DNA from: a virus
Length of the DNA: 64,000 nucleotides
Virus record (IMG/VR): IMGVR_UViG_3300017971_000214
Span: 1 to 64,000 of that record
Strand: one strand, 5' to 3'
Shown: positions 8,665 to 58,411 of the stretch, piece by piece
Layout of the letters: the number at the start of each line of letters is the position of its first letter
Numbering within the stretch: position 1 is the first letter of the stretch
Notes under the pieces: generated by a model
The model's database searches: none
The model's input: only the letters and a program-made list of their open reading frames with translations
What the model was told of the DNA's origin: nothing
Made by a program: the position numbers and the translations under genes

Positions 8665-9239
8665 TGGCTGGCAAGCGCAGCACCGCGGTGATGGACCGGC
8701 GCATTAAGATCCACCACATGTGGATGCGGCTGGAGATGCTGGTGGACGTTTTGGAGGAGAACCTTCCGATCATCGAGGAAGCGCTGGAGGATGCGGACCG
8801 CCCCACGAAGAGCTGTTTGGCGCAGGTTCGGAGAGCCCTGGAGAAGATCAACGATGACGACTGAGCGCAAGAAGCCACCTGAAGCGATGACCCCACGGCT
8901 CCTAGGCTACGGCCGAGCGCGCGACTACACAGCGCCCGAGGGCTACGAGCCGGTCGAGGAAGGCCGCCGGGTGTACGCCTACCCCACCGACTTCTTCTGC
9001 TCCCGTTGCGAGGGCTGTGGCTGCAAGAGCTGTAAGTGGACCGGAGAGGAAGCCGTGGCAGCTAGGCTGCGAGCTGCCCGCCGTCGGGGTAGGGCCGCCA
9101 GGAAGGCCGCCCGAAAACGAGCGCACTTGCCCGTAGACCCCGGCGTCCAGTAGTGCTGGAGGCATCATGATCTGGGTAGCCATAGGCGTCGTGCTCATCA
9201 TCGCGTCCCTCGCTGGCGATGAGTGATGCCCCCCACACT

Positions 9240-9860
9240 TGATCTTCCTCCCGCTTGATCTGCCCCCGGCCCGAGCACAGGAGAGGTGCGCCCCGCCCCC
9301 GCCAAACTCCCTCTTTGCCCCGCGGCCCGCCAGCTGGCGCCGAGATATTAAGATCGCCTGGCGCTCGATGGCATCTTCTTCGAGGCCCCAACCGCCAGCT
9401 GGCCTGAACGTCAGCTCGTTCCTGAACGGCCCCCTTTCCTGAACGGTCCGCCCTGGCGCGCCAGCGGCCCCGCCCAAAGGAAGTTTGGCCCGATTTCGCC
9501 CCTGGCGATCCCGAACAGCCAGCTCGGCCCAACCCCCGCCAGCTCGCCAGCCGCCAGCGCCAGACCGCCAGTTCCTGAACAGCCCCCGATCCTGAACAGC
9601 CCGCCAGAACCCTCCCCGCCAGCGGCCCCCACCCTGAACGACCCCCACCCAAACTCCCTCCCCATGCCTACACCTACCACCCCCTCCCACAAATCAACCC
9701 CCGAGCTGGCCCCTGAACGGCCCCTACCCTCTGGCATGATCTTAGAACGCCCCTCCCGCCCCCTAGCTGCCCCCCTAAGCCCCTCCCCCCACTCCAACAC
9801 CCCCTCGCCAGGGCCGCCAGAAAGGCCCTACACGGCCCCGCCAGGGCCTGGAGAAACGTG
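9240..9860. repeat. C-rich non-coding region with iterated CCTGAAC(A/G)G and GCCAGC motifs
   Basis: About 7 CCTGAAC copies between 9403 and 9720, many (C)GCCAG copies, and no credible ORF. Confidence 0.6.
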
Positions 9861-9970
9861 CCAACCCACTGCGCACTGTTGGCACGCTTTTTGGCAGTGC
9901 AAAGTTGGCACAGGGCATGCATATGGGCAATGTTGGCACACTTTTTGGCGGCCAAAAAACGTGCCATTTT
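9858..9970. promoter_or_regulatory. cluster of GCA-N2-GTTGGCAC operator/sigma54-like boxes in both orientations
   Basis: TTGGCAC at about 9879, 9905 and 9933; GTGCCA at 9858 and 9961. Confidence 0.55.
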
Positions 9971-10069
9971 TTGGATCGAAAACTACCGAGTTTGCCCGTT
10001 TTCTCCGCTTAGGCCGCCCCCACCCCCAAACTCCTTGGCGCTACCCCCTCTACACTCCACGGGACCTCA

Positions 10070-10109
10070 CACTACAATTGTTGACCGTGGACCGGGAGGC
10101 TGGTAAGGT
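10070..10109 (+). promoter_or_regulatory. CACTACAATTGTTGACC box fused to a sigma70 -35 (family member 1 of 6)
   Basis: TTGACC-17 bp-TAAGGT; the box recurs at 12360, 14214, 27683, 31356 and 41874. Confidence 0.75.
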
Positions 10110-10227
10110 GGGGCTCTCTCATCGGGCGAAGCCGCTGACGGAAGGCGGGAGAGAGTGGCGGGGGAGAAGGCTCGGGGGGAGGATTGGTTGTTGGAACGGG
10201 CGGCGGTGAGATGGAAAGGCGGCGTGA

Positions 10228-10662
10228 ATGACGCGGCAGACGAGCATAGCGGCCTACAATCAGATCAAAGCCGATGGCACCCTCAGCAAGATGCGTTGGA
10301 TCGTGTACGACTGCCTGTTCCGCCACGGCCCCCTCACCAGCAGGGAGGTCGACAATGGCTTGGGTCCAGGGGAGGACCGACCCAGCTACCACAAGCGCCT
10401 GAGCGAGTTGGAGCGCATGGGGGTCGTCACCACGGTGGGGCGCAAGGTCTGCAGCGTGACGGGCAAGGAGTGCGAGCTGTGGGACGTCACGGCGCTCGCG
10501 ACGCCCATCCCCCTCGATGCTGCTTCGAAGTCCCCTTCTCGGAAGGACCGCCAGGCGGCTGCCGAAGAACTGCGGGACATCTACAAGACCCTCGTGGCCC
10601 AAGGTCACCAGGGCTTCAGCGACAACCTCGTGCGGGTCTGCAAGTGGCTCGCAGCGAAGTGA
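10228..10662 (+). CDS. winged-helix-like DNA-binding protein
   Basis: GPLTSREV...YHKRLSELERMGVV pattern. Confidence 0.55.
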   Translation: MTRQTSIAAYNQIKADGTLSKMRWIVYDCLFRHGPLTSREVDNGLGPGEDRPSYHKRLSELERMGVVTTVGRKVCSVTGKECELWDVTALATPIPLDAASKSPSRKDRQAAAEELRDIYKTLVAQGHQGFSDNLVRVCKWLAAK

Positions 10663-10820
10663 AAGGGAACGAAGGCAGAGCAGTCGGACCGCATGCATAG
10701 GCGCACGAGACGGTACGTCGGAGCGGACGGCAGACGGAGAGAACGACGGGAGGAGCGCTGGACAGGACGGTCGATGGCGGGCCTGAGTGCAGGGGAGTTC
10801 GAGAGAAAGACGGAGAGATG
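10662..10820 (+). repeat. intergenic (GNNN)n tract
   Basis: 28 consecutive tetramers from 10709 to 10820 start with G; the tract ends at the ATG at 10818. Confidence 0.8.
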
Positions 10821-11704
10821 ATCCGACCACAACACGACAACCTGCCCAAGAAGACTTTGATCTGGCTCCTGTTCGACATCGACAACGGGCACGGCGGCTC
10901 CCACCACTACGTCTGGTGGTTCGAATCCCGTCGACAGGCCCGCGAGTTCAAAGCCCGCCACCTCGCGAGCCCCAACCCCCACAAGACCGACCTCGTCGGC
11001 CCCGTGAGAGCGAACGTCGATAGGATTCCCCCACGCGCCCTGAAAGGAACCAGGCTGGACCGATGAGCACCGAAGCCATTCGGAAGACCATCCACTGCGG
11101 CGGCTGCGGTGCCTCCGGTGGAGGAGAGAAGTGATCGCCCCCTGCTGGTGCCCACCCACCTGCCCCTATTGGGGAACCGAGTGCACCCTCTGCCCCTACG
11201 CTTTGATCTGGAGAGCACCATGAACGAGCCCGAACACATCCTCAACCCCGGCACCCAGGTCAAAGTCCACGACGTCCTCGGTGCCCCCCGAGGCATGCTC
11301 ATCAAACCCGAGATTCTAGATCGTCGGACCCCAGGCGTCTCCGGGATGATCTGCGGCTACGTCCCCGGACACGGCGGCGATGTCTACTGGGTCCGGCACG
11401 ACGGCGAAGAAGATACCGGCTCCGCCTACGGCTACTGGGAGTTCGATCTGACCGAAGAAGGTGACCATGAGCTGGCTCAGCCGTAGACGACAGCGAAAAC
11501 ACGTCGAGTCGATCCTGAAGCAGTGCGGCTGCGTCTGCTTCTGCCCCAACTGCCGAACCCCCCTCAACGACCAACCAGGCGAGGCCCTGGACGACAGCAT
11601 CTACCGCTACTCCTGCCGCTGCGGAGCCAAGCCCTGCTTCGACTTCGACTACCCCGTCCCCGTCAAGGTGGCCGACCACTCGATCCCTGAGGTATAGTCC
11701 CCCC

Positions 11705-12359: not shown

Positions 12360-12412
12360 CACTACAATTGTTGACTACCATGTTGACAATCATTGTCACT
12401 AGGTGATATGGT
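12360..12412 (+). promoter_or_regulatory. operator box plus sigma70 promoter of the RAMP-like operon
   Basis: CACTACAATTGTTGAC at 12360, TTGACA at 12383 and TATGGT at 12407. Confidence 0.7.
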
Positions 12413-12452: not shown

Positions 12453-13178
12453 ATGGCGCGAGCGAAGAAGCAAGAGAAGGTAGTCAAGATGTCGGACGTG
12501 TCGGTCCCGGTCATCACGGGGCGCACGGCGAAGGGCCGGGCACAGAAGGTCGACATCAACGTCCCGATCCCCGCCTACATCGAGCTGATGGTCCACGTGC
12601 GAGGAACGGAAGGCGGCGAGCTGCTGACCAACAAGCTGAACGACGACATCCTCAGCGACAACCCGGCGGAAGCGAAGCTGAAGAAGCAGCACCGGCTCCC
12701 AGCGGAGGTCTACGAGCGATCCAAGTACCTCGACGCCGAGGGCAACGACTGCATCCCCGGCGACAACTGGCGCCGATGCTTCGCCGATGCAGCCGTCACC
12801 ATGGACGGGGTGTCCAAAGCGAGCCTGCACCGCGAGATGGTGATCCTCGATGAGATGCCCCGCCTCGACTACAAGGACGTCTACATGCGGCGCGACATGG
12901 GTCGGGACTCGGGAGTGAACCGAGCGCCCCGCTTGATCTTCCGGGCGGCCTACCGTGGGTGGGAGTGCAAGATCCCAGTCCGCATCATGCTCAACGAGAC
13001 GACCTTCGAGCGCGCCGTCGCCCTGTTCAAGATGGCCGGGCTCTGCATCGGCATCGGGGACTGGAGACCCGGAGCACCCAAGGGGGGATCCAAGGGGACC
13101 TTCGACGTGGTGTCGGTGGAAGTCATCGGCGGCACGGTCACGATCAAGGAGCTGCAGGCGGAGCCCAAGGCTGCGTAG
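12453..13178 (+). CDS. RAMP/Cas7-like RNA-binding protein, candidate effector of the downstream periodic array
   Basis: N-terminal strand VHVRG..ELL, then Y..EG..CIPG.NWR.C..DAA, and a C-terminal glycine-rich loop AGLCIGIGDWRP....GSKGTFDV typical of RAMPs. Confidence 0.7.
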   Translation: MARAKKQEKVVKMSDVSVPVITGRTAKGRAQKVDINVPIPAYIELMVHVRGTEGGELLTNKLNDDILSDNPAEAKLKKQHRLPAEVYERSKYLDAEGNDCIPGDNWRRCFADAAVTMDGVSKASLHREMVILDEMPRLDYKDVYMRRDMGRDSGVNRAPRLIFRAAYRGWECKIPVRIMLNETTFERAVALFKMAGLCIGIGDWRPGAPKGGSKGTFDVVSVEVIGGTVTIKELQAEPKAA

Positions 13179-13186
13179 GGTGCGCC

Positions 13187-13678
13187 ATGGCGAAGAAGAA
13201 ACGCCTCCTGTACGTCCCGGCCGCCAAAAGCGGGATCTCCGAGGAAGAGGCGCAGGTGTGGGGCGAGGAGCTGACCAAGTTCACGGGCAACCCCAAAGAC
13301 CTCGGGGCCAATGCCGAAGAGGTCTACGATGCCGTGAAGGCCGACCCCTCGCACCCGCTGCACCCTTTGATCTTCTACGTCTCCCAAAAGGAGGCGGCCA
13401 GACGCCACTACATCGAGCACATCCGCAAGTGTTCGCGCAGCATTCAGGTTCAGTACCGGCCCCCGCACAAGCCGAACAACGTGGTGCTCACCCGAGCCTT
13501 CCACAACGTCGGCGGCGACTACTACCGGCTCGATGACGTGATGAAGAGCGACGAGCTGCGGGCTCGGGTGGTGGCCACGGCGGCGGCAGAGGCACGGGCA
13601 TGGGCGAAGAAGTACCGCCTCTACAAAGAACTTGCAGGACTGGCCGACACCATCGACCAGTATTTGGATCAACTTTGA
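13187..13678 (+). CDS. helical accessory protein between the RAMP-like gene and the array
   Basis: Co-operonic 163 aa ORF; its stop codon abuts the first array unit. Confidence 0.75.
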   Translation: MAKKKRLLYVPAAKSGISEEEAQVWGEELTKFTGNPKDLGANAEEVYDAVKADPSHPLHPLIFYVSQKEAARRHYIEHIRKCSRSIQVQYRPPHKPNNVVLTRAFHNVGGDYYRLDDVMKSDELRARVVATAAAEARAWAKKYRLYKELAGLADTIDQYLDQL

Positions 13679-14212
13679 GTGGAACGGTAGGGAACGGTTG
13701 GGCCGTGCGTGGCTTTGCCCCGCCCGGCTTGGACCGGCAATGCGAGGAGCCCCGTCGCGGTGTGATGCTGCCGCGGGGCACCAAACCAAGCGTCACCGGG
13801 ATCGGCTGTGAATGGCATCGTTCGGCCGCGTTCGGTAAGGCTCGGCCCGGCAATGCAAGGAGTCCTATCACGGATGATCTCTGTCGTAGGACGCCAAACG
13901 GTGCGGAACGGAAGGGCCGTGCAGCGCACGACCGCGTTCGGCAGCGCCCCGCTGCGTGCGGTTCGGTGGGGCAATGCAAGGAGTCCTATCACGGATGATC
14001 TCTGTCGTCGGTCGCTATTCGGAAAGGCTGTCCCGAACGGCAGCGCTGGGCACCGCATGGCAGGGCAGCGCAAGGAGCCTGGTCGCGGATGATCTCTGCC
14101 GCTAGGCACTACTCCCTCGGAGTGGAGAGGCACGTCCTCGTAGCGCTAGGCATAACCCGGCGCGGCTTGACAAAGCACGGAGCCCCATCACGGCGGAAGC
14201 TGTCGTGGGGCG
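13679..14212 (+). ncRNA. five-unit array of pentamer-periodic (mostly GGY-NN/NGY-NN) tracts, each followed by GGAG and a hairpin; candidate guide-RNA array
   Basis: Tracts at 13681-13745, 13789-13858, 13900-13979, 14021-14073 and 14119-14178. Hairpins at 13750-13778, 13863-13891, 13984-14012, 14078-14106 and 14183-14210. Confidence 0.8.
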
Positions 14213-14213
14213 C

Positions 14214-14253
14214 CACTACAATTGTTGACCATAGTGGGGCTAGGTGATAGGGT
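14214..14253 (+). promoter_or_regulatory. CACTACAATTGTTGACC box promoter
   Basis: TTGACC-17 bp-TAGGGT. Confidence 0.7.
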
Positions 14254-14274
14254 GGTGGCGTTCTCTCGGCTGCG

Positions 14275-14553
14275 GGGGAGAGAGTTGACCGGATGGGTCG
14301 GCGGGATGTCAGAACGAATGATCATCGGACGGTAGGACAGCGGGAGCGGGCGAGGAGTCGGCATGTCCAACGGTAGGAGCGCAGGAAGGCTTGTTGATCA
14401 CGGCAGACCGCACGATGGTTGACTGGAAGGCTAGAAGGAAGGCGCGCTCAAGACAGTGGTGCGGAAACGGTGGTAGGCCGGTACGCATGACAGAACAGCC
14501 GGGGGCTAATTGGTTCGATCCTGGGAACGTCTGAAAGAAAGCGAGAGCCTGAG
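14275..14553 (+). repeat. intergenic 4-nt-periodic G tract
   Basis: gatg ggtc ggcg ggat gtca gaac gaat gatc..., with phase slips; lies between a promoter and the ATG at 14554. Confidence 0.65.
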
Positions 14554-14803
14554 ATGAGCAAGACATGCTGGGACGATCACACGGCTGCGACTGCCGAGCA
14601 AAACGAAGAGCTGGAGCGGGCGGTAGCCGACGTGCTGAACCGGGCCTGTCGAGAGAACATCGCCAACGTGCCCGACTTCATCTTGGCCCGTGTGATGGTC
14701 CGCGCCTTGGCGGCTTTCGAGGAGTCGTTGCAGGCACGGAATGCTTGGTTCGGGTTGGACAAGAAAGATCAAGAACCTATACCGATACCGGAGGGAGCCA
14801 GAG

Positions 14804-27721: not shown

Positions 27722-30468
27722 GGGAGCGGTCCAACGAGCGGGCGGAGTAGGAGAGACCATGGCGAACGAGCGGCCCGGCGCGCCGGAGACGGGGCTGACC
27801 CCTGAGCAGAAACGGGGGTGTGCGTGGGCTCTTCTGCTAGGAATCATCGGGGTCATCATATTCGGGCTCTACCTCATAGAACGCGATGACCGGCACGACT
27901 GTGAGATCCGGTCCTGCGTGGAAGGGAGAACGCCGAGGCTCATCGACGGGGTGTGCATCTGCGTAGTTCTGCCGGGAGGGGAGCGATGAAAGATCCTTCT
28001 CCTTGGGGTCCGTTCGAGTACTGGCGCAAGGGCTCCACGCCGAAGGGCTACGTCTGTTCGGTCTGCGGAGACTCTGGTGTGCGGCTATGGCGGCAGTCGA
28101 ATACGATCGCTTCCTGCATCGAACTGATGTGTCGCGGCTGTGCTCTGAAGAACCAGACGGGCAAGGGGCACATGCAGGGGCTAGAAGGGATCAAGACGGA
28201 CTGCATCGGATGGCTCGTCCCCGCTGTACCCACCGAGGAAGGCAACACCTTCTGGGGCTATACGTCGGTCCCTCCGTCTGGTGTCAAATGGTGGTACAGC
28301 CTACCGAGTTGGGAGGGAGCTGGGGCATGACGGGAGCCGAGAAAAAGCTGGTCTACTTCCTGACCCTCTACGCTGACGGGCTCTGCACGCGCGACGAATT
28401 GGTGACGCAGCTCGCGATGCTCCCTCCGAGCGTCTTGGCGCTGGTCCCTGACAACGGGCGGCAGCCCCGCGACGACTTCCCCGGCATCCGCCCCGACGCT
28501 GAGAAATTGCGGGAGCAGATCAAAGACTCCTCCGTCACCATCATGAGCAGCAGCGGCCACTTCTACACCGCGGCCGACTTGCAGGACGACGAACCATGAG
28601 CAGTGATCTCTTCGACGCCGAAGACCACAAGGGCATCTCCATCGACTTGGAGATGAACGTCCACAACACCTTGTTCCTGACGGCGCTGGGAAAAGAGGAG
28701 CGGGACTACGGGGAGCGCGGCGAGGAGATGGTGACGTTCACCTTCCGCCCTGATGAGAAGGGGATCGAGCAGGCTCGCGGGATGCGCGATGCGTTGGACA
28801 AATGGGCACGGCATGCGGGGGGAGTGGAGATCCAAACGAACATGCCGCCCAAGTTGAAGGCAGTGCTCGACGCGCTGTACGAATGGCGTGACAGTCTTCC
28901 TGCTGTTCCTGGGGATGCTACCGATGGCGTGGCTGGGAAGCTCATTCACGCTACGGATGAGTGGAGGTCAATCGGATGAGTACCTACAGAGATGCAGCGT
29001 CTGAGGCGCAAGCCAAGACGCAGGTGATGATGCTGGAGCTGATGCAAGCGATGACCAAAGCGTCGCTGGCTTTTCAGGGAGACGACTTGGCCGAAGCTGC
29101 CATGAGCATGCGCGACGCTGCTGGGGCGCTGAAGAAGCTAGCAGCCGAGTTCGACAAGACGGCCGACGAGATCCAAGAGGAGATCAGCAAGAACCAGAAG
29201 GACCGCTGATGGACCGCTGCGACACCGAGGTGTTCGAAAAGGGGGAGCCTTTGCTACTCGCTTCCACCGGGGAGACGGGGGGCAACAAGCTGTTCGAGGC
29301 TTGGGTTCAGCGTGTGGCCCGTGTGTCAGGCCAACGTGTGGACTGGCACTACTCGGGGGGCATCGCGCAGGTGCTGACCCTCGGGGACCTGGAGCAAGCG
29401 GGCGTCGCCGCGCGCAGCCTGGAAAGCGAGCTGCCTGAGGGTCAAAGGATCATGCGCTGGTTCGTCTCCGGCGAAGCCGGCGCGTATCGTAGGGGCGTGA
29501 CCGAGGAGCCGGAAGGCGCCATCGCCGGGTTCACCGATCTGAACGGGGAGCAGCAGTTCCTGGTGAAAGCTGAGGACTGATGCGGAAGCTCGATTCGTTC
29601 GACAAGAAGATGGTGATCGGCATCGCCATCGGAATCGCGATGGTAGCGGTTTCGATCTACATGCGTTGCGGGATGCATCAGGAGTGCCAGGAGAAGAGCT
29701 GCCCCGAAGGTCACGTTCCGGCCCGAGTCGACGAGCGCTGCGTATGCTTGTTGGAGGCAAAGTGACGATCTACGTGGACGAGACCGGTCATGTGTGGGAG
29801 GAGCGTTGCTTTCCTCCCCCCTTGGATTGGAAACCGGGCAACGTCATCAAGGTGCGCGGAGCCCGCTTCTCCATCGTCAGCATCCACCGCGAGCTGTCGC
29901 CTTACCCGCGGGAGCCCAAGAACAAGGTGGTGATTCGTGGGGTGGATTAGGCGTGCCCTCCAAGTGCTCTGGGACTGGTTCGCTCCTGCGTCTCCGGACG
30001 ACGAGTACACCATCCGGCAGGGCGTCCGGGTTCCCGCCTGCTGCGAATGTGGCGTGGAGGTGAAGAACTTCAAGGATCGCAACGTAGTGGACCTGACGGA
30101 GCCGGGTGACGTGGACAAGCGCGTCGTGCGGTTCGGTTTGATCTGTGACTCCTGCTTGGAAGTCAGAGGGAAGGTAGACGGTTCGGGCTGAAGGTACGAT
30201 CTGGTGTTGGAGAGGTTAGCCGCATGCTCGTGCGACGGAGAGGTTGATTGCATGATTCATGATCTCGTAAGCGAGCTGGTCGCGCGCCTTCGCGCGAATG
30301 AAGGTGCCAGCGCAGAAAACTTGGTCCAGAGGCTCGAACGCGAAGCCAAGGAGTTCGTCTGTCCTGTGTGTGGGGTAGGCACAGACGATCCCTTCGTGGG
30401 GTTGGTGGAGGAGCCCCAAGCCAAAGTCATTTTCTACTGCCCTGCGTGCAACGATTTGGGGAGCAGCG

Positions 30469-31355: not shown

Positions 31356-31395
31356 CACTACAATTGTTGACCATCCCAACACTAGCTGATAGGTT
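31356..31395 (+). promoter_or_regulatory. CACTACAATTGTTGACC box promoter followed by a 4-nt-periodic leader
   Basis: TTGACC-17 bp-TAGGTT; the leader to 31493 reads ggat ggat ggcc tggt ggtt... Confidence 0.7.
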
Positions 31396-31964
31396 GGTAG
31401 CGTCTGAACGATGGATTCATGGATGGATGGCCTGGTGGTTTAGCGTCGGGTAGCACGCGGGACGGCAGGGCCGGAAGGCTGGAAGAAAGACGATGGGATC
31501 TGATCTCTACATGCAGCACAGTATGTACTGCCAGCACGAGTTCCCGAAGCTCATGGCAGCGTGCAAGAGACTTACCGAGCGATGGCGTTCCGCTGACGCG
31601 CACAAGATGTTCCCTGCCGCCGAGAGGGCTGTGGCCGAAGAGGTCATGAAGGGCTGCGCCGAGGCGCTGGAGAAGGTCATCAAGGAAAGCGAGTTCGGGC
31701 CATGAGTTCACGACGCATCGACGTGGTTCTTCGCAGCACTGTGCCGTTCGGCAACTTGGGGACGAAGGCCGTAGAAGTTCGACGCAAGATGTCCTTCGAC
31801 TGGGAGCCGGGGGAGGCGGGCGAGGAACCGTCCAAGTTCCAGCACGCCGTCAGCGACCCGAAGGAGTTCAAGAAGATCTTGGCGCTCACCATCATGAGGG
31901 GAATCGAAGCCGAGATGCCTCGCATGGTGGACGAGTTCATCGACGCCCTGGAGGAGAATGGGTA

Positions 31965-32135
31965 GGCCACGTCGGCTGTCGGTCGGACGCAGGGATCCAA
32001 GGTCGGAAGGAAGGTCAGATAGGACGCAAGCGGAGCGGTCGACTGGGAGTACACACGATCGGACGAAGGGATGAACGAACGGAGGCGCGACGTCTAGGAC
32101 GAGAGCCGGAAGGGGCGTAGGCCCGAAAGGAAGCC
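31965..32135 (+). repeat. intergenic 4-nt-periodic G tract
   Basis: gtcg gtcg gacg cagg...gaag gaag...aacg aacg gagg cgcg; ends at the ATG at 32136. Confidence 0.65.
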
Positions 32136-32920
32136 ATGACTACGAGCCAAGATGCAATCGCATTCCTGAAGAGTCACAAGGACCACGGGGTTTACCCTGC
32201 CGATGACCCGGCCCGCAAGCGTAAGGGGCTGCTCTGCTCCAGGTGCGACGTGCTCTGCGAGGTGTCCTTCGCGGAGTGGGCGCTAGAGCCCGCGCTGAGG
32301 GCCTGGGAGGCCGAGCAGCGAGAGGCGATGGCCCAGGCTTCCGAGGAGCGAGGACGCCTCCAGAGGGCTCTCAGAGCCCAGCAAGAGGCCCTTCTGCCAG
32401 AGGTGCGAATGGGGGCCAACTGGTGCGGAGACTGGGAACCATGAGCGACGTGGCTTTGATCTGTCACCTGCCTCGATCCCGGCGCACGACCTTAGGGATT
32501 GCACGAGCGCGAGAGATCTTCGAGGAAACGGAGTGCACGATACAAGAGCGCGTAGGTGTACGTCCCTTGCATCTGAATCCCGGAGTGCCACCCATTATGC
32601 GCTTCGGTGGATGTCTTCTGCGCTCCAACTGCAAAGGGTGCAAGGAAGAACCCTTCGAAGATCCATGTGGGCGTCGGGACAGCGAGCGTCCCTTCCCGAA
32701 GTGGGGGTTTTCGATCGCGTTGGACAAGTTCGACCAGGCATTCATCGAGAACAACGACGAGAACCACACGTTCCGGTACAAGCATGCGGAGGTGGTGGAG
32801 GTCATGACGGAGGTGATCTCCAAGACTCCCGAGCTGGCGCCGGAGATCTGGTGGGACCGAGGCTTCGGGCACTTCGTCTACAACCTGTTCTTCGAGCCCG
32901 ATGCCTGGGAGGGCGTGTAG

Positions 32921-34584: not shown

Positions 34585-35249
34585 GGCGGAGCGCCGGGAG
34601 AAAGCGCTCGGGCACGAGTGCCCCGACTGTGGAGGGCTCATCCAAATCGTTCCTGCCTCGGTGATGCACGAGGCGCACGAGGAAGGGGAGGTCGCACGGC
34701 GCTGTCTGCTCTGCCCCTTCATCTGCTACATAGGCGACGATCCTCTGCACTACTCGCTAGAGGAAGAAGAGACGGTGATAACACCCATCTTCCCGGCCGC
34801 TGACGCGTTCCGAGGCTTCAACGAGGCAGTGAAAAGGATGGCCGATCAGATGGCTGCGGTGGTGGCTGCGATGTCGATCCCTCCTATGCGCTTCGAGCTT
34901 CCTCGCTTGCCTTCTCTCACGCTGCGCCAGGACTTGGAGGAGCTGGGAGAGTTGATCACCGGCCCCGACGACTCGGAAGAAGAGGAGCCCGAAGAAGATG
35001 GCGACGATCGACGTTACAGCGACATGTGATCGCTGCGAGAAGCAAGAGCGGCACAGCATTCCGATCAGCCAGCTCAAGAACTCCTGGTGGAAGCCGCACG
35101 ATTGGCTGTGGATGACCGCAGCGATAGGGTTCGACGCCCGGTTGAACGTGAAGACCAGGGCTCATGCGCTAGTGTGCCCCGAGTGCCAGGACAAGATGGG
35201 CGTGCACAAGGATTTGAACATCTCGATGGGTGTGCAGACGGAACAGCGG

Positions 35250-35360
35250 TAGGTACGTCGGAGCAATGGGCAGGTGGCACGACACGCGGTCGGTCGGTTC
35301 GGCTGGCCGGAGGTCGGTTGGAAAGTTGGCCCTACTTGGCGACGGCGGTAGCGTGGGAAC
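35250..35360 (+). repeat. intergenic 4-nt-periodic G tract
   Basis: gcgg tcgg tcgg ttcg gctg gccg gagg tcgg ttgg aaag ttgg. Confidence 0.65.
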
Positions 35361-37509
35361 ATGAGTGCAGAGATGAGACGAGGGCGGCTCGTGCAAGACC
35401 TTCAGGGATACGCAGAGTACGTAGCTGAAAAGATCAAAACGGCCTTCAACACGATGCCTATGGATCGAGCACTTCCGGCCACACGCACGGCGCGCGAAGA
35501 GCTGAGGCTGTTGGAGGAAGCTCGGGACACCGCGATGAAGCTCGACATCGACGACATGCCGGCAGTGGTGAAGGTGAAGCAGGTGAAGCCGTGAGTGGGG
35601 GCGATGATGGATACAACGCCGAGCCCCTGAACTTCGGCTGTGTCATCTGTCACGCTGCGAGCGCGAAGCACGAGAGTCCTGGGGACGAAACCAAGGTCAT
35701 CCTGCTCATGTTGCTGAAGGGTGATTCCTCGGCGGCGGAGATGTACGAGGACTTGTGCTTCTTCCACCGTCGCATCATGAACGACTTGCTGGAGACGACA
35801 CCGGAGGCGGTATGAACAGGCGAGAGTTGATCAAGTTGGGAGCCCTGGCTCCTCTGATGGCGTGGTTCGAGCGGGTGTTCGGGCGCTTCTTCCCCGAGCG
35901 CGCCCAAGAGAAAATGCGGGGCTTCCGCCTGTACTTGGACGGCGAAAGCGTGACCTTCCCTGATGCAGTGTCCTTCGAGCACGACCCCTCGGAGTCCTTC
36001 AGCATGGCCTTCTGGTTCAAGACTCAGGCGAAGGACGCGGAGGTGAAGACGCAGCGCAGGAAGAAGATCCCAGCGATGCGCGTGAAGATCTCCAGGCTGT
36101 TCAGCCGCTTGAAGCCTGACGGGCAGTGGCACCACTTCCAGTGTAGCTACGACGGCGGCTCAGACCGGTCCCCAGAGGTCATCGTCCACGAGCCCCCGCC
36201 CGGAGGCATCGAGTTCTGGAAGGGGTAGGAATCAGCCATGTAGGTCTGGGTGGGACACATCGTGATCTCGGCGTGTTGACAATCAGTTTCCTATGTGATA
36301 GGTTAGTATTAGAAGCCCAGAAGAAGGGCACGAAAGAGAAGGCAGAGATGAGCGAAGCGGACAAGGGATTCAACAACGAGCGGCTGCTAGCGAAGGCCAA
36401 GGAACTGGCTGCGGCGGCCAACGCTGCTACGGGCTCCGACGACTTCAACGCCGGGATGCTGTCGGTGTACAGCTCGGTGGAGAACGACCACGGAGAGTTC
36501 GTGGTGATCTGGACGGCCAATCTGGGCAAGTTCTCCTCGAACGGCGGCGGCGAGACCATGGAGCGGGCACTGAAGGCGCTGGAGGACAAAATCGCCCGGT
36601 TCGCTTCCGCGCAAGCGGGCGGCTGATGCAGCTGACCGAAAAGCAGAAGCAGGCCATCGAAGACTGGGTGTTCGAAATCAGTGCCAAGGGGCTCATCGAG
36701 ACCGGCGAGTTCGGCGACGACTTTCGCGAAGCCGAGGCTGCGATCCTCCAGTACGTGAAGGAGCTGAAAGAGAAGGCCCTGCGATGATCACCGGAGACTA
36801 CGAGTGGACCCCGGAGGAATGGGCGGAGGTACAGAGGTATCTCGAATCTCCGGATCGGCAGGTCAAACACCAGCCGGGGTGTCCGGGGTTCGAGCCCTCT
36901 GAGGGCGTCGAGCCCTGCGGAGGCGTCTTTCAGTGCGGGCGCTGCGGGAGGTACTTTGGCTGGTGTTACGGCGCCTCGGACGGCACAGAGGCCGACGAGT
37001 GGTGCGACGACTGCTGGTACGAGGTCTACGGAAAGAAGCTCTCCACGGGCTGAGGAGACCAACATCATGAAGACTTGGTGCATCGTTCGTTTTCATTCCA
37101 TCGGCTCGGACCGCTCCATGTGCGGACCGCTTGGACGAGAAGGGTGCTTTCCGAACGGGCAGATCTCCACAGAGGTGATGCGCTTCCGAAGCCGCGACAC
37201 TGCCGAGGAGTTCATGCGCCAGCACTTCCCCGACTTCGGTGCAGCGGACCACGAGGTAATGACCCTCGATTCGATCACTTTCACCGTGACCACCCACCGG
37301 TACTACAACGGCAAGACCCGCGTGGTGTTCCGCGGACCCTACGACGAAGCGGTGGCGTCCTACTTCATGTGGAAGGGCCGGCACGCCGACGAGGTTCCGC
37401 GTGTGAAGGTGTCCCTAGATGTCGAACTAGACCTGTCCGTGGCTTTGGAAGAGCGCGGGCATCTGATGCAGATCTGTGAACCGCAAGTGGCCTAGAGAGG
37501 ATCAAGTCG

Positions 37510-43637: not shown

Positions 43638-45148
43638 AAGGCCACAGGCGCAATCCACTTGGCCCCCTGCGGATACCGCAGGCCGCGTGGGATGAGATGT
43701 TCGAGGAGCTAGAGCCTGTTCGGCGCGAAAGCGACGGGCGGTTGCTCAAACGCTACAGGCTGGTGAAGTTCGGGGGCGTGCCCATCGAAGACGTTCCCAT
43801 CTGTGTCGAGGACCCGATGGACCAGCTCATTCACTGCGAGCTGATCGAACGCAAGCCGCTGCCGATGCCGAAGACCCCGTCCATTTTCTTCATGGACTAT
43901 TCCTACGGATCGGACGATCCTGAAGGGACAGAGGGAGAAGACCCATGCGAGTGAAGTGCCCCAAGTGCGAACGTGAGTACCCGATTGCTCGGGGAAGTGA
44001 GGTCATCTGCCCCTGCGGGCACCGCTTCCCTGTGAAGGGCAACGAGGTGAAGCTACCGGAGATCTTCTGCGACGAGGACTTCTTCACCCAGCCTTGCCTT
44101 CAGCCTGTGTCGGACAACAAGCCGACGAGCACGGAGGAAGACATCGAGTACTTCCAGAAGAATCTGTACGCCGCCATGGGCATCCCGCCGGACATGCTGG
44201 GGAGGTAGCCATGTGTTTCCACTGCCGCCCCTATCCTCACTGCGAAGTGGTTCTGCAGATCGAACGTCCTTCGGAAGAAGAGCTGCACCTGACCGTCATC
44301 AAGGGCCGCTCGACTCCAGCCGAGGTTCGCTTCGACACTGCCGAGGACGGGTCCGATGTTGTGGAGGTCGCGGTCGCTCCCAACCGCCCGGCCGAACACA
44401 TCAGGTTCAAGTTCGAGCAAGGAGATGGCGACTAGCCCGACAACACGGCACCGTGCCAACGGTGCGGAGAGCCGTGGCCTACGTTTCTCGACCCCGAGGA
44501 GTTCCACATCGACGGGCACTACTGCCTCGGGTGTAGGGCTTTGCGCCAGCGGGAGCGAGAGGCGGTGAGAAGGGGGGAAGCAAAGTGGTTAAGGTCCCCA
44601 CCATGGAAGTCCTAGACACCTACAAGTTCCAAGGTCCGGGTTTCGTAGCAGTGCTGCGTCGCTCTGAGTGCCCCGACGAGGTCCGTCAGGGCGACCGGGT
44701 GGAAGGGTCGGACGGCCGTAGGTGGGCCATCCGCGGGGTGCTTCCCGGAACGGCTGTGGTGGGACAGTCCTTCAACGAGCCCATCATTGGACTCATGCTC
44801 GAAGGGCGCGGAGAACCCAGGATCGGCAAACCCCTGGTGCTCGTGAGCGAGGGTAACGGAGACGCCATCTGGTTTTCTTCCGAGCAGGCCAGAGCTGTCC
44901 TTCACATCCTACGTACCGTCGACATCTGGTCGAAGTACGAAGGCTGCAACCCCGACAGCGCCGGACTGAAGAAGCTGCCTTTGCACGCCAAGCACTTCGA
45001 AGAAGCTCGCACCGAAGGACTGATGGATCAGCTGCGGGTCATCGGCTACGGCGCTCCCAAGAAGTCGTCGAAGAACTCCGCTTGACAATTGCGTAGCGCA
45101 TTGATACAACGGTAGAGCTAAGGACGGCAGTTACCGAAAGGATCGAAG

Positions 45149-57613: not shown

Positions 57614-58147
57614 TTCCCCCGACAGGGAGACCGGTCGCTCGTGTACTCCTTCAGAGGTTGCTCGATACGTCGGGACTAGGAGAAAGACATGGTGGCGGCT
57701 ACAGCGGAGGAACTAGAAGTTCGCTGCATAGGTTGCGGAAGACCCATTGCAGAAGGTGAAAAGATCTACCGGATCGCCAAGGGAGATCTCGACAGCGGAG
57801 AGTTCGACGAGCACTCGGAGTACGGCTCCATGCATGAGGAGTGCTTTCATCGAGCTGTCGAGTCCCCCCGTTCGGTGCTAGAGGAAGTGCGACGCATCTC
57901 CCGAAAGCAACGACGGCGGAGGTCATGAGCGGTAGAAGCACGATCGACCAGCTGAAGTTGGATTTGGAGCTGGAAGGGTACGAACCCGGAACGCCTCAGT
58001 TCGACGTCATGCTCCGGCAGCGCCAGGTGGAACACTGCGTGGAGATGAAGGAGCTGCCGAGCTGCGAGACGTGCCCAGCATACTTCGACTGCGAGATCAT
58101 CAAGGCACACCTTCGTGACCTCCGGTACGGAGTGGAGATAGATCAAG

Positions 58148-58411
58148 ATGGACCCGATGGAGGAGCAGGAGCTGCTGACCGAAGTGGTTCGGGCGCTGGT
58201 GGATAACCCTCACGTCGTGCAAGTGCACGAACGAAGGTCCAACGGTGCTTCTCACATGATCATATGCGTGGATGCTCAGGATCGCGGAAAGGTCATCGGC
58301 AGGTCCGGGGCCACCATGCGCGCGATGCGCGTACTTTTTGGAAGGATCGCTGCGGTAGAAGGCCGCAAGATCTTCCTACACGTGGAAGGGGACGAGCGCT
58401 GCTCGGCGTAG
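58148..58411 (+). CDS. khpA: KH-domain RNA-binding protein, KhpA/YlqC family
   Basis: ALVDNP..V.V...D.GKVIGRSG.T..AMR. Confidence 0.85.
   Translation: MDPMEEQELLTEVVRALVDNPHVVQVHERRSNGASHMIICVDAQDRGKVIGRSGATMRAMRVLFGRIAAVEGRKIFLHVEGDERCSA

Follow-up and report, generated by a model that had tools for sequence, protein, structure and literature searches.

Can an RNA element be defined by its period rather than by its sequence? The question is raised by a 64,000-nucleotide stretch of viral DNA, here called the window, which forms the first 64 kb of the 126,260-bp IMG/VR virus record IMGVR_UViG_3300017971_000214. Between its genes lie tracts of (GNNN)n, in which G returns at every fourth position and the three bases in between vary. 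The original prediction, made from the letters of the window, described these tracts as a dispersed family of leaders ending at start codons and proposed a genome-wide cis element read by period. We find that the tetramer feature is real, statistically extreme and unexplained. The tracts probably mark an undescribed RNA code that is read by a protein. They resemble the five-base guide code of VIPR systems, which is their closest known relative, and yet lack the pentanucleotide unit and the tail by which members of that code are recognized.

G at every fourth position

Positions 10709-10820 consist, as had been claimed, of 28 back-to-back GNNN tetramers, the last of which, GATG, provides the ATG that opens the open reading frame (ORF) 10818-11066. 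Across the window, seven exact runs keep G at every fourth nucleotide for at least 10 units. Besides the 28 units at 10709-10820 there are 22 units at 596-683, 19 at 10158-10233, 12 at 31445-31492, 11 at 35289-35332 and 10 at 32097-32136, all on the forward strand, and a further 10 units at 7935-7974 in coding sequence. For A, C or T, no run of this length occurs in the window. A scan of the full record for period-4 signal, which the original prediction had proposed as a check, yielded nine runs of at least 10 units, compared with 1.28 on average over 50 shuffles with local composition preserved in 100-nt blocks; the longest run in the record has 28 units and the longest among the shuffles 13. 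When a few misses are allowed, 29 in-phase blocks are obtained that amount to 1,663 nt or 416 units, and 372 of these units (89.4%) carry the phased G, as against 27.7% G at off-phase positions, which is the background rate. In the three longest runs, the phase is kept without exception (28/28, 22/22 and 19/19). At spacings of 3, 5, 6 and 7 nt, G chains in the tract regions do not exceed the level of the shuffles.

The signal is confined to one strand. With up to two mismatches, (GNNN)x16 can be placed 91 times on the forward strand of the record and twice on the reverse strand, which bears out the claim that the tracts keep to the coding strand, and no C-phased tracts were found in non-coding DNA. 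The in-phase blocks all lie on the coding strand and nearly all in non-coding DNA. The description of the tracts as intergenic stands for almost all of them, with the reservation that those at 30150-30257 and 35237-35332 overlap gene ends. The element is not genome-wide, as had been supposed: tracts occupy 9 of the 51 intergenic gaps of at least 60 nt in the window, and the record's other half has 15 such gaps, all free of tracts. Within genes, period-4 segments are few, short and at chance level. Two exact runs inside long genes beyond the window, of 13 units at record positions 64409-64460 and of 10 units at 74550-74589, are probably chance occurrences in G-rich coding sequence, the longer one equalling the shuffle maximum.

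The bases between successive Gs are nearly unconstrained. Identity at positions 2-4, compared at lags of 4-24 nt, amounts to 0.16-0.39, with 0.26-0.30 expected by composition, in line with the claim that the tracts share no primary sequence. Each tract contains 10-33 distinct tetramers, and the commonest among 242 are GAAG (11), GAAC (10) and GACG (10). Position 2 is mildly A-rich and T is scarce; otherwise positions 2-4 are free, and in the pooled exact tracts the phased G stands at 92% and the remaining positions at background. Position 4 is G in 38% and position 2 a pyrimidine in 37%, so that neither GG nor Y is favoured. Given that positions 2-4 are without repeat signal, the tracts are not tandem repeats or decayed microsatellites, and this origin was ruled out. 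The predicted RNA folding of the tracts equals that of shuffles (z between -0.38 and +0.38 in 8 of 8 tracts). Together with the free positions 2-4, this means that the signal resides in neither sequence nor structure. In composition, G is abundant in the tracts (41-45%) and C scarce (20-23%). A search of IMG/VR with exact (GNNN)x20 gave at least 118 loci; nearly all of the matches listed are tandem or coding repeats, and the number is thus no gauge of how rare non-repetitive tracts are.

From promoter or stop codon to start codon

The 17-nt motif CACTACAATTGTTGACC occurs seven times in the window, against an expectation of 0.06, and always on the forward strand. Together with the adjoining downstream sequence, it reads as an upstream element followed by a -35 box TTGACC, a spacer of 16-17 nt and a -10 box TAnnnT. 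Judged by this layout, the CACTACAATTGTTGACC sites are sigma-70-type early promoters. Three of them, at 10070, 14214 and 31356, directly precede tracts, as the original prediction had noted, and these tracts begin about 0-17 nt from the putative transcription starts. The promoter at 10070-10109 (-35 TTGACC, 17 nt, -10 TAAGGT) would initiate at about 10117; the tract that follows, 10134-10231, lies in the 5' untranslated region (5' UTR) of a winged-helix gene (10228-10662) and has the G of the ATG in phase. The promoter at 14214-14253 (-35 TTGACC, 17 nt, -10 TAGGGT), with a predicted start at about 14260, leads into a period-4 region of four to five in-phase blocks, 14259-14553, which would reach from the transcription start to the ATG at 14554. 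At the third promoter, 31356-31395 (-35 box, 17 nt, -10 TAGGTT; presumed start about 31402), the tract at 31401-31492 constitutes the 5' UTR and is directly followed by the ATG at 31493.

For the remaining tracts, the starting point is the preceding stop codon or a position shortly downstream. The tract that gave rise to this study, 10663-10820, is the spacer between the winged-helix gene and ORF 10818-11066 and carries GGAG just before the ATG. The tract at 31966-32134 takes up the interval between the stop codon at 31965 and the ATG at 32136 (14/17 and 24/26 units in phase), and that at 35237-35332 (21/24) begins 15 nt before the stop codon of 34998-35252 and ends 59 nt before a called GTG at 35391. 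All five further tracts named in the original prediction thus exist, and four more were found. One, at 30150-30257 (16/18 in phase within 30186-30257), begins within the last part of gene 29964-30191 and stops 212 nt short of gene 30469; another, at 44526-44590, is short (10/11 and 4/5 in phase) and ends at the GTG start codon 44585. The other two are period-4 regions near the start of the contig. The first, 35-349, consists of about seven in-phase blocks (16/19 in phase at 117-193, 17/21 at 194-279), and the second, 447-775, with 41/45 units in phase at 595-775, ends 34 nt before the ATG of an HTH_8 gene at 809-1063. All of these tracts are on the forward strand.

Each tract takes up essentially the entire untranslated spacer that a promoter or stop codon opens and the following start codon closes, the Shine-Dalgarno sequence included. 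Six of them end no more than 5 nt from a start codon (10228, 10818, 14554, 31493, 32136 and 44585), and in each of these six a ribosome-binding site of the GGAG or GAAAG type is located inside the G register. The register relative to the start codon varies among tracts. Long spacers are made up of several blocks in differing phases, with a shift every 3-45 units; the shift was +1, that is, one 5-nt step, in 14 cases, -1 in 6 and +2 in 4. No motif was found at the phase-shift junctions, and the flanks of the tracts have no k-mer of 9 or more in common besides the promoter.

Several other features adjoin the tracts. An ordinary ORF of 42 codons, 10693-10821, runs across the 10663-10820 tract, and its TGA overlaps the next ATG (ATGA); this ORF could be a chance product of T-poor sequence or an upstream ORF for translational coupling. 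Between the end of the tract region 447-775 and the ATG at 809, positions 776-808 hold TTGGCACAGTTGTTGTAGGG, in front of a gene whose product contains a Fis-type HTH_8 motif. TTGGCACAGTTGTTGTAGGG resembles a sigma-54 -24/-12 element (TGGCAC-N5-TTGC). The 1.2 kb upstream of the promoter at 10070 (8865-10069) are C-rich (C 38%, G 28%) and contain no confident gene on either strand, only ORFs devoid of Pfam matches.

The record as a whole has a G+C content of 62% and a completeness of 68% as estimated by CheckV. It encodes a portal protein, a prohead protease, a tail sheath, a gp19-like tail tube and a UvsX-like recombinase, along with a major head protein assigned to phrog_138, which we take to be gp23-like. 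On the strength of this set of head, tail and UvsX-like recombinase genes, the record is a T4-like myovirus. A purpose-built codon model called 168 genes across it, nearly all on the forward strand; the first 60 kb form an early region of small genes lacking functional annotation and of many spacers of 100-300 nt. Near and distant DNA searches of the INPHARED phage collection matched no annotated relative of the record, and close homologues of the early proteins were not found in IMG/VR. Neither the window nor the remainder of the record contains a tRNA gene that ARAGORN could detect, and Rfam gave no matches in the window at the gathering score.

A VIPR locus among the tracts, and known relatives

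The main text of the report on VIPR describes a RAMP protein, Vipr, that polymerises on a vrRNA of 9-16 YNNGG units with a fixed tail; the NN bases of the vrRNA pair with DNA, and each third base is skipped (10.64898/2026.04.26.720920). According to the companion report, one Vipr protomer binds each repeat, and the G's are flipped into pockets (10.64898/2026.04.26.720927). The segment 12360-14213 of the window is a complete canonical VIPR locus, an ordinary member of the kind already in print. A copy of the promoter motif with one mismatch (12360-12376) stands in front of vipr (12453-13178), which encodes a 241-aa RAMP/Cas7-like protein of the VIPR family. Then follow a 163-aa gene (13187-13678) in the vipr-accessory (vap) position, whose family was not found (no Pfam match, and weak, TPR-like PDB matches), and a vrRNA array (13683-14213) with five units, each composed of 8-13 YNNGG pentamers and a conserved tail hairpin; all are on the forward strand. 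Vipr has 898 relatives at E<=0.001, and a profile built from 50 of them matches the SUSP1 Vipr of PDB entry 36pp with E=4.8e-19 over 183 positions. Its AlphaFold model (pLDDT 87.8) matches Csm3/Cas7 chains at E of about 1e-5, and its G-loop reads GDWR, comparable to the published residues D177, W178 and R179 that hold GGY. In the array, the tail hairpins of the five units share an ATGATCT loop and a conserved C-C mismatch and show compensating stem changes; outside these five units, 13736-14213, no tail, loop or handle motif occurs. Among IMG/VR loci with the same G-loop motif, 7 of 7 have period-5 G arrays within 2 kb. No targets of the canonical vrRNAs were found in about 1 Mb of DNA, comprising the phage's own genome and 65 loci from the records of relatives and others.

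Of the nine gaps with tracts, three are found no more than 2.3 kb from the vipr-vap-array locus; the others are at distances of 11-32 kb. The tract at 14259 does adjoin the pentamer array, as had been pointed out, beginning about 45 nt rather than about 60 nt past its last unit; the 10663-10820 region is some 1.6 kb from vipr. Like vrRNAs, the tracts are phage-encoded, intergenic and presumably promoter-driven, with short units, G in strict register and the other bases free, and both are elements defined by period rather than sequence. They differ from vrRNAs in that the unit is 4 nt with a single fixed base instead of 5 nt with GGY, in that an invariable 3' tail is missing, in that in-phase blocks reach 45 units and shift phase frequently, and in that the tracts cross ribosome-binding sites up to the start codons. 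In place of the pentanucleotide that characterizes VIPR repeats, the tracts have period 4, their 5-nt G chains being at or below the shuffle mean; in place of the VIPR 3' tail, the tract at 30150-30257 is followed by sequence that cannot be aligned to the tails. The main text on VIPR names the repeats YNNGG, NNNGG, YNNNG and NNNNG, with a legend referring to a 'pentanucleotide motif across types'; no other unit length occurs in that main text, and its supplementary logos (S17) and data S4 could hold some (10.64898/2026.04.26.720920). In the accessible text of the companion report, wording on a 4- or 5-nucleotide repeat was not found (10.64898/2026.04.26.720927).

Beyond VIPR, our search of the literature for GNNN or every-fourth-nucleotide elements produced nothing relevant besides a paramyxovirus analogue. 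TRAP, to which the original prediction had loosely likened the system, reads (G/U)AG with 2-3-nt spacers, in about 11 copies and on a ring, in Bacillus trp leaders. The tracts share with TRAP leaders the arrangement of spaced short repeats in an mRNA leader, where oligomeric TRAP can occlude the ribosome-binding site. Unlike those leaders, they present a single G at a strict 4-nt spacing, in up to 45 copies and with no preference for GAG or UAG; the tetramers are diverse and GAGN units not dominant, and a TRAP-type element is not what the tracts represent. In the assembly origin of tobacco mosaic virus, G occurs at every third base. Promoter elements of paramyxoviruses and filoviruses are hexamer-phased (PMC7643936). 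In such phase-read viral RNA signals, one base repeats at the footprint of a coat or nucleoprotein subunit and is recognized in the right phase only, as may be the case for the tracts; unlike the tracts, these signals belong to RNA viruses, have footprints of 3 or 6 nt and few repeats, and serve encapsidation or polymerase entry. Class 1 CRISPR offers a further parallel: the Cas7 backbone flips out one base of the CRISPR RNA (crRNA) per subunit, at each sixth position, according to the main text of the VIPR report (10.64898/2026.04.26.720920). A RAMP filament with a fixed register, a feature of crRNA on Cas7, is also what might be proposed for the tracts. The crRNA spacers differ, however, in having no periodic base, in taking their register from the protein alone and in depending on a repeat handle and a cas operon.

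The tracts appear to be of narrow distribution. The major head protein has 54 related loci at 61-91% identity. In the records of ten relatives (62-185 kb), (GNNN)x16 can be placed 0-5 times, compared with 93 times in the present record, and the placements inspected look coding or due to chance. Absence in relatives, which the original prediction had named as an outcome that would speak against it, is formally what we find; those ten relatives, however, share no early genes with this phage, and five of them lack Vipr and show no similarity to the window's first 20 kb at the DNA level. Tetramer placements are likewise missing from five records that carry a close Vipr, two of which are complete genomes of 63 and 40 kb. 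One relative, G001, has a major head protein 86% identical to that of the present phage and, at locus L195 (G001:108500-120500), carries the promoter motif three times with short leaders; no homologous early genes were found in these 12 kb. It seems that the early genes are exchanged as cargo and the promoters retained. An IMG/VR scan for the promoter motif matched G001 and otherwise one unrelated low-GC sequence. The sole metagenome homologue of the winged-helix protein (locus L186, 46% identity) lies among packed genes with no tracts, and longer fused forms of this protein were not found. In contigs of related strains from wetland runs X4 and X5, the flanks of 1-808 align and tract blocks are jumped (115>431, 497>630, 656>768 and 117>265), at low-identity joints that are unreliable; this hints that tracts turn over faster than genes. 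As far as can be seen, the tracts are confined to this lineage among the records examined.

What could read the tracts

Our preferred reading, held tentatively, takes the tracts to be tracks along which a protein polymerises in 4-nt steps, thereby gating how early genes are translated. The tracts would be transcribed as strand-specific RNA with one fixed base and three free ones. Along this single-stranded RNA, a protein would polymerise with one subunit per 4 nt and a pocket for each phased G. Such a coat would cover the naked RNA and, since the register crosses the Shine-Dalgarno sequence and the tract spans the whole untranslated stretch, would hide the ribosome-binding site. The tracts would then act as gates, coded by period, that control translation or stability for nine early genes. 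Precedents for stepwise coating are Vipr, with 5-nt steps on GGY/NN, and Cas7, with 6-nt steps on crRNA, and one precedent stands in the same genome, namely the confirmed Vipr and its YNNGG array near the tracts. The phase holds despite 27.7% off-phase G, which argues for a ruler rather than for a rule that forbids G-less 4-mers. For an element that is period-defined, strand-specific, untranslated and overlapping with ribosome-binding sites, a register-reading protein is the most economical explanation. Of the proposal that period rather than sequence is what is read, the period, the strand and the untranslated placement are accordingly supported; the missing part is the reader protein.

Several observations weigh against this reading, first among them that no reader protein was found in the record. 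No paralogue of vipr was recovered, as phmmer gave the self match alone below E=0.4; when the Vipr profile was compared by hhalign with those proteins of the record that have at least 100 aa, the probability reached at most 8.7%, a weak control in that the self match was lost in parsing; and Pfam assigned no other RAMP among 165 distinct called proteins. Tract expression is deduced from the putative promoters. No tracts are present in 42 of the 51 long spacers of the window, and a change of phase every 3-45 units would break one continuous filament. The near-absence of tracts from the ten relatives implies that the element is dispensable for the phage group. Moreover, Vipr occurs in the company of no tracts in five of five other records, and two genomes with a KhpA-like gene likewise have zero placements.

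The last two points bear on the readers that had been suggested, a RAMP-like protein and KhpA. The RAMP-like protein is indeed present, as Vipr (12453-13178), but it has a GGY-type G-loop, an array of pentamers of its own, and close counterparts in the five tract-free records. The KhpA-like KH gene is also real (58166-58378, forward strand; PF13083, E=1.5e-14). The codon-model caller had missed it and called 57925-58206 in another frame instead. The gene is present in the two tract-free relatives G003 and G004, where its block is conserved and syntenic with a uracil-DNA-glycosylase-family gene, and it is absent from two complete Vipr-bearing phages that are likewise tract-free. Vipr, KH gene and tracts occur together in this genome alone, a sample of one, and a specific association of the KH protein with tracts was not seen. 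KH domains bind about 4 nt. The candidate readers are therefore a RAMP that escapes recognition by sequence or is encoded in the unsequenced third of the genome, Vipr acting in another mode, and the KhpA-like KH protein.

The main rival, possible though doubtful, is that the tracts are tetramer-coded guide RNAs, that is, a 4-nt variant of vrRNA coated by a RAMP, with the G hidden and the free bases available for gapped pairing with the DNA of a rival element. Possibly they are orphan guides, served by an effector from the missing third of the genome or from a competing phage, and orphan vrRNAs in phages are reported in a later study (10.64898/2026.10.15.759431). The grammar of a fixed G and hypervariable N is that of vrRNA, and the degenerate consensus given in the main text of the VIPR report reaches NNNNG (10.64898/2026.04.26.720920). 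Intergenic, promoter-driven placement would suit guides, and the three of nine tract-bearing gaps near the VIPR locus fall among about five gaps surrounding it (hypergeometric P of about 0.035). Many blocks have 10-26 units and so come near the size of vrRNAs, several phases per spacer resemble multi-unit arrays, and the jumping of tract blocks in the wetland contigs is what fast-changing guides would produce, the unreliable joints granted. Set against this are the period of 4, where every type in the main text on VIPR is a pentanucleotide, and the lack of GGY, of a conserved tail or handle and of a second RAMP in the record. Neither would guides have any need to cross the ribosome-binding site up to the start codon. 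With eight gapped pairing rules, no target was found in the same DNA of about 1 Mb, where the best matches equalled those of shuffled controls; as this DNA gave no target for the canonical vrRNAs either, the test has little power. The triplets that remain once the G is removed are not coding-like (log-likelihood -4.47, compared with -3.79 for genes; 14 stop codons in 359), and models of the free bases by dinucleotide versus codon yielded nothing decisive. A combined form, equally speculative, is that phages possess a fourth RNA register in which a filament protein moves in 4-nt steps by way of the phased G, and that the tracts are at once a bank of guide-like or orphan RNAs against rival phages and ribosome-binding-site switches for the phage's own early genes.

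It is unlikely that some mutational process, for instance one that creates or expands arrays, left the tracts behind as a young or relic by-product that is now mere spacer. Their absence from all ten relatives examined would fit such an origin, as would their restriction to an early region that is specific to the lineage and resembles no relative at the DNA level, the background composition of the free positions, and the failure to find a partner protein, a target or a structure. Phage genomes are compact, however, and 1.66 kb has been retained; a G phase of 89-100% next to randomized neighbours requires either a very recent origin or selection on G alone; and the tracts fit exactly between transcription and translation landmarks, on one strand. 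We know of no process that writes GNNN. It is more improbable still that the tracts form a compositional device with no reader, in which untranslated RNA avoids any G-less stretch of at least 4 nt, or is kept G-rich and C-poor, and thereby escapes Rho, RNase E-type cleavage or ribonuclease toxins. Their composition is of this kind, and a perfect tract cannot contain a G-less 4-mer. Avoidance, however, demands a maximum gap between Gs and not a fixed phase, which here holds for up to 28 units, and the pattern is missing from the same 42 of 51 long spacers. Hidden coding sequence, whether read in quadruplets or serially frameshifted, is hardly credible: the G-initial units look like GNN codons and ORF 10693-10821 crosses one tract, but ARAGORN found no tRNA genes in the record, the register relative to the start codon varies, phase shifts are frequent and the de-G'd triplets are not coding-like.

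Tracts of this kind are easily synthesized and scrambled, so that their role as tracks for a 4-nt polymerising protein can be tested with no need for phage culture. RNA elements that are read by register evade homology and structure searches, and VIPR showed in 2026 that a register code can programme the recognition of DNA. If the tracts also serve as guides, guide storage and gene control would be one molecule. If the preferred reading is true, the tracts would be a concrete substrate with which to find a new RNA-coating protein and would bear on the evolution of the RAMP filament footprint, and a second code with a different step, located in mRNA leaders, would widen the repertoire of protein-RNA codes.

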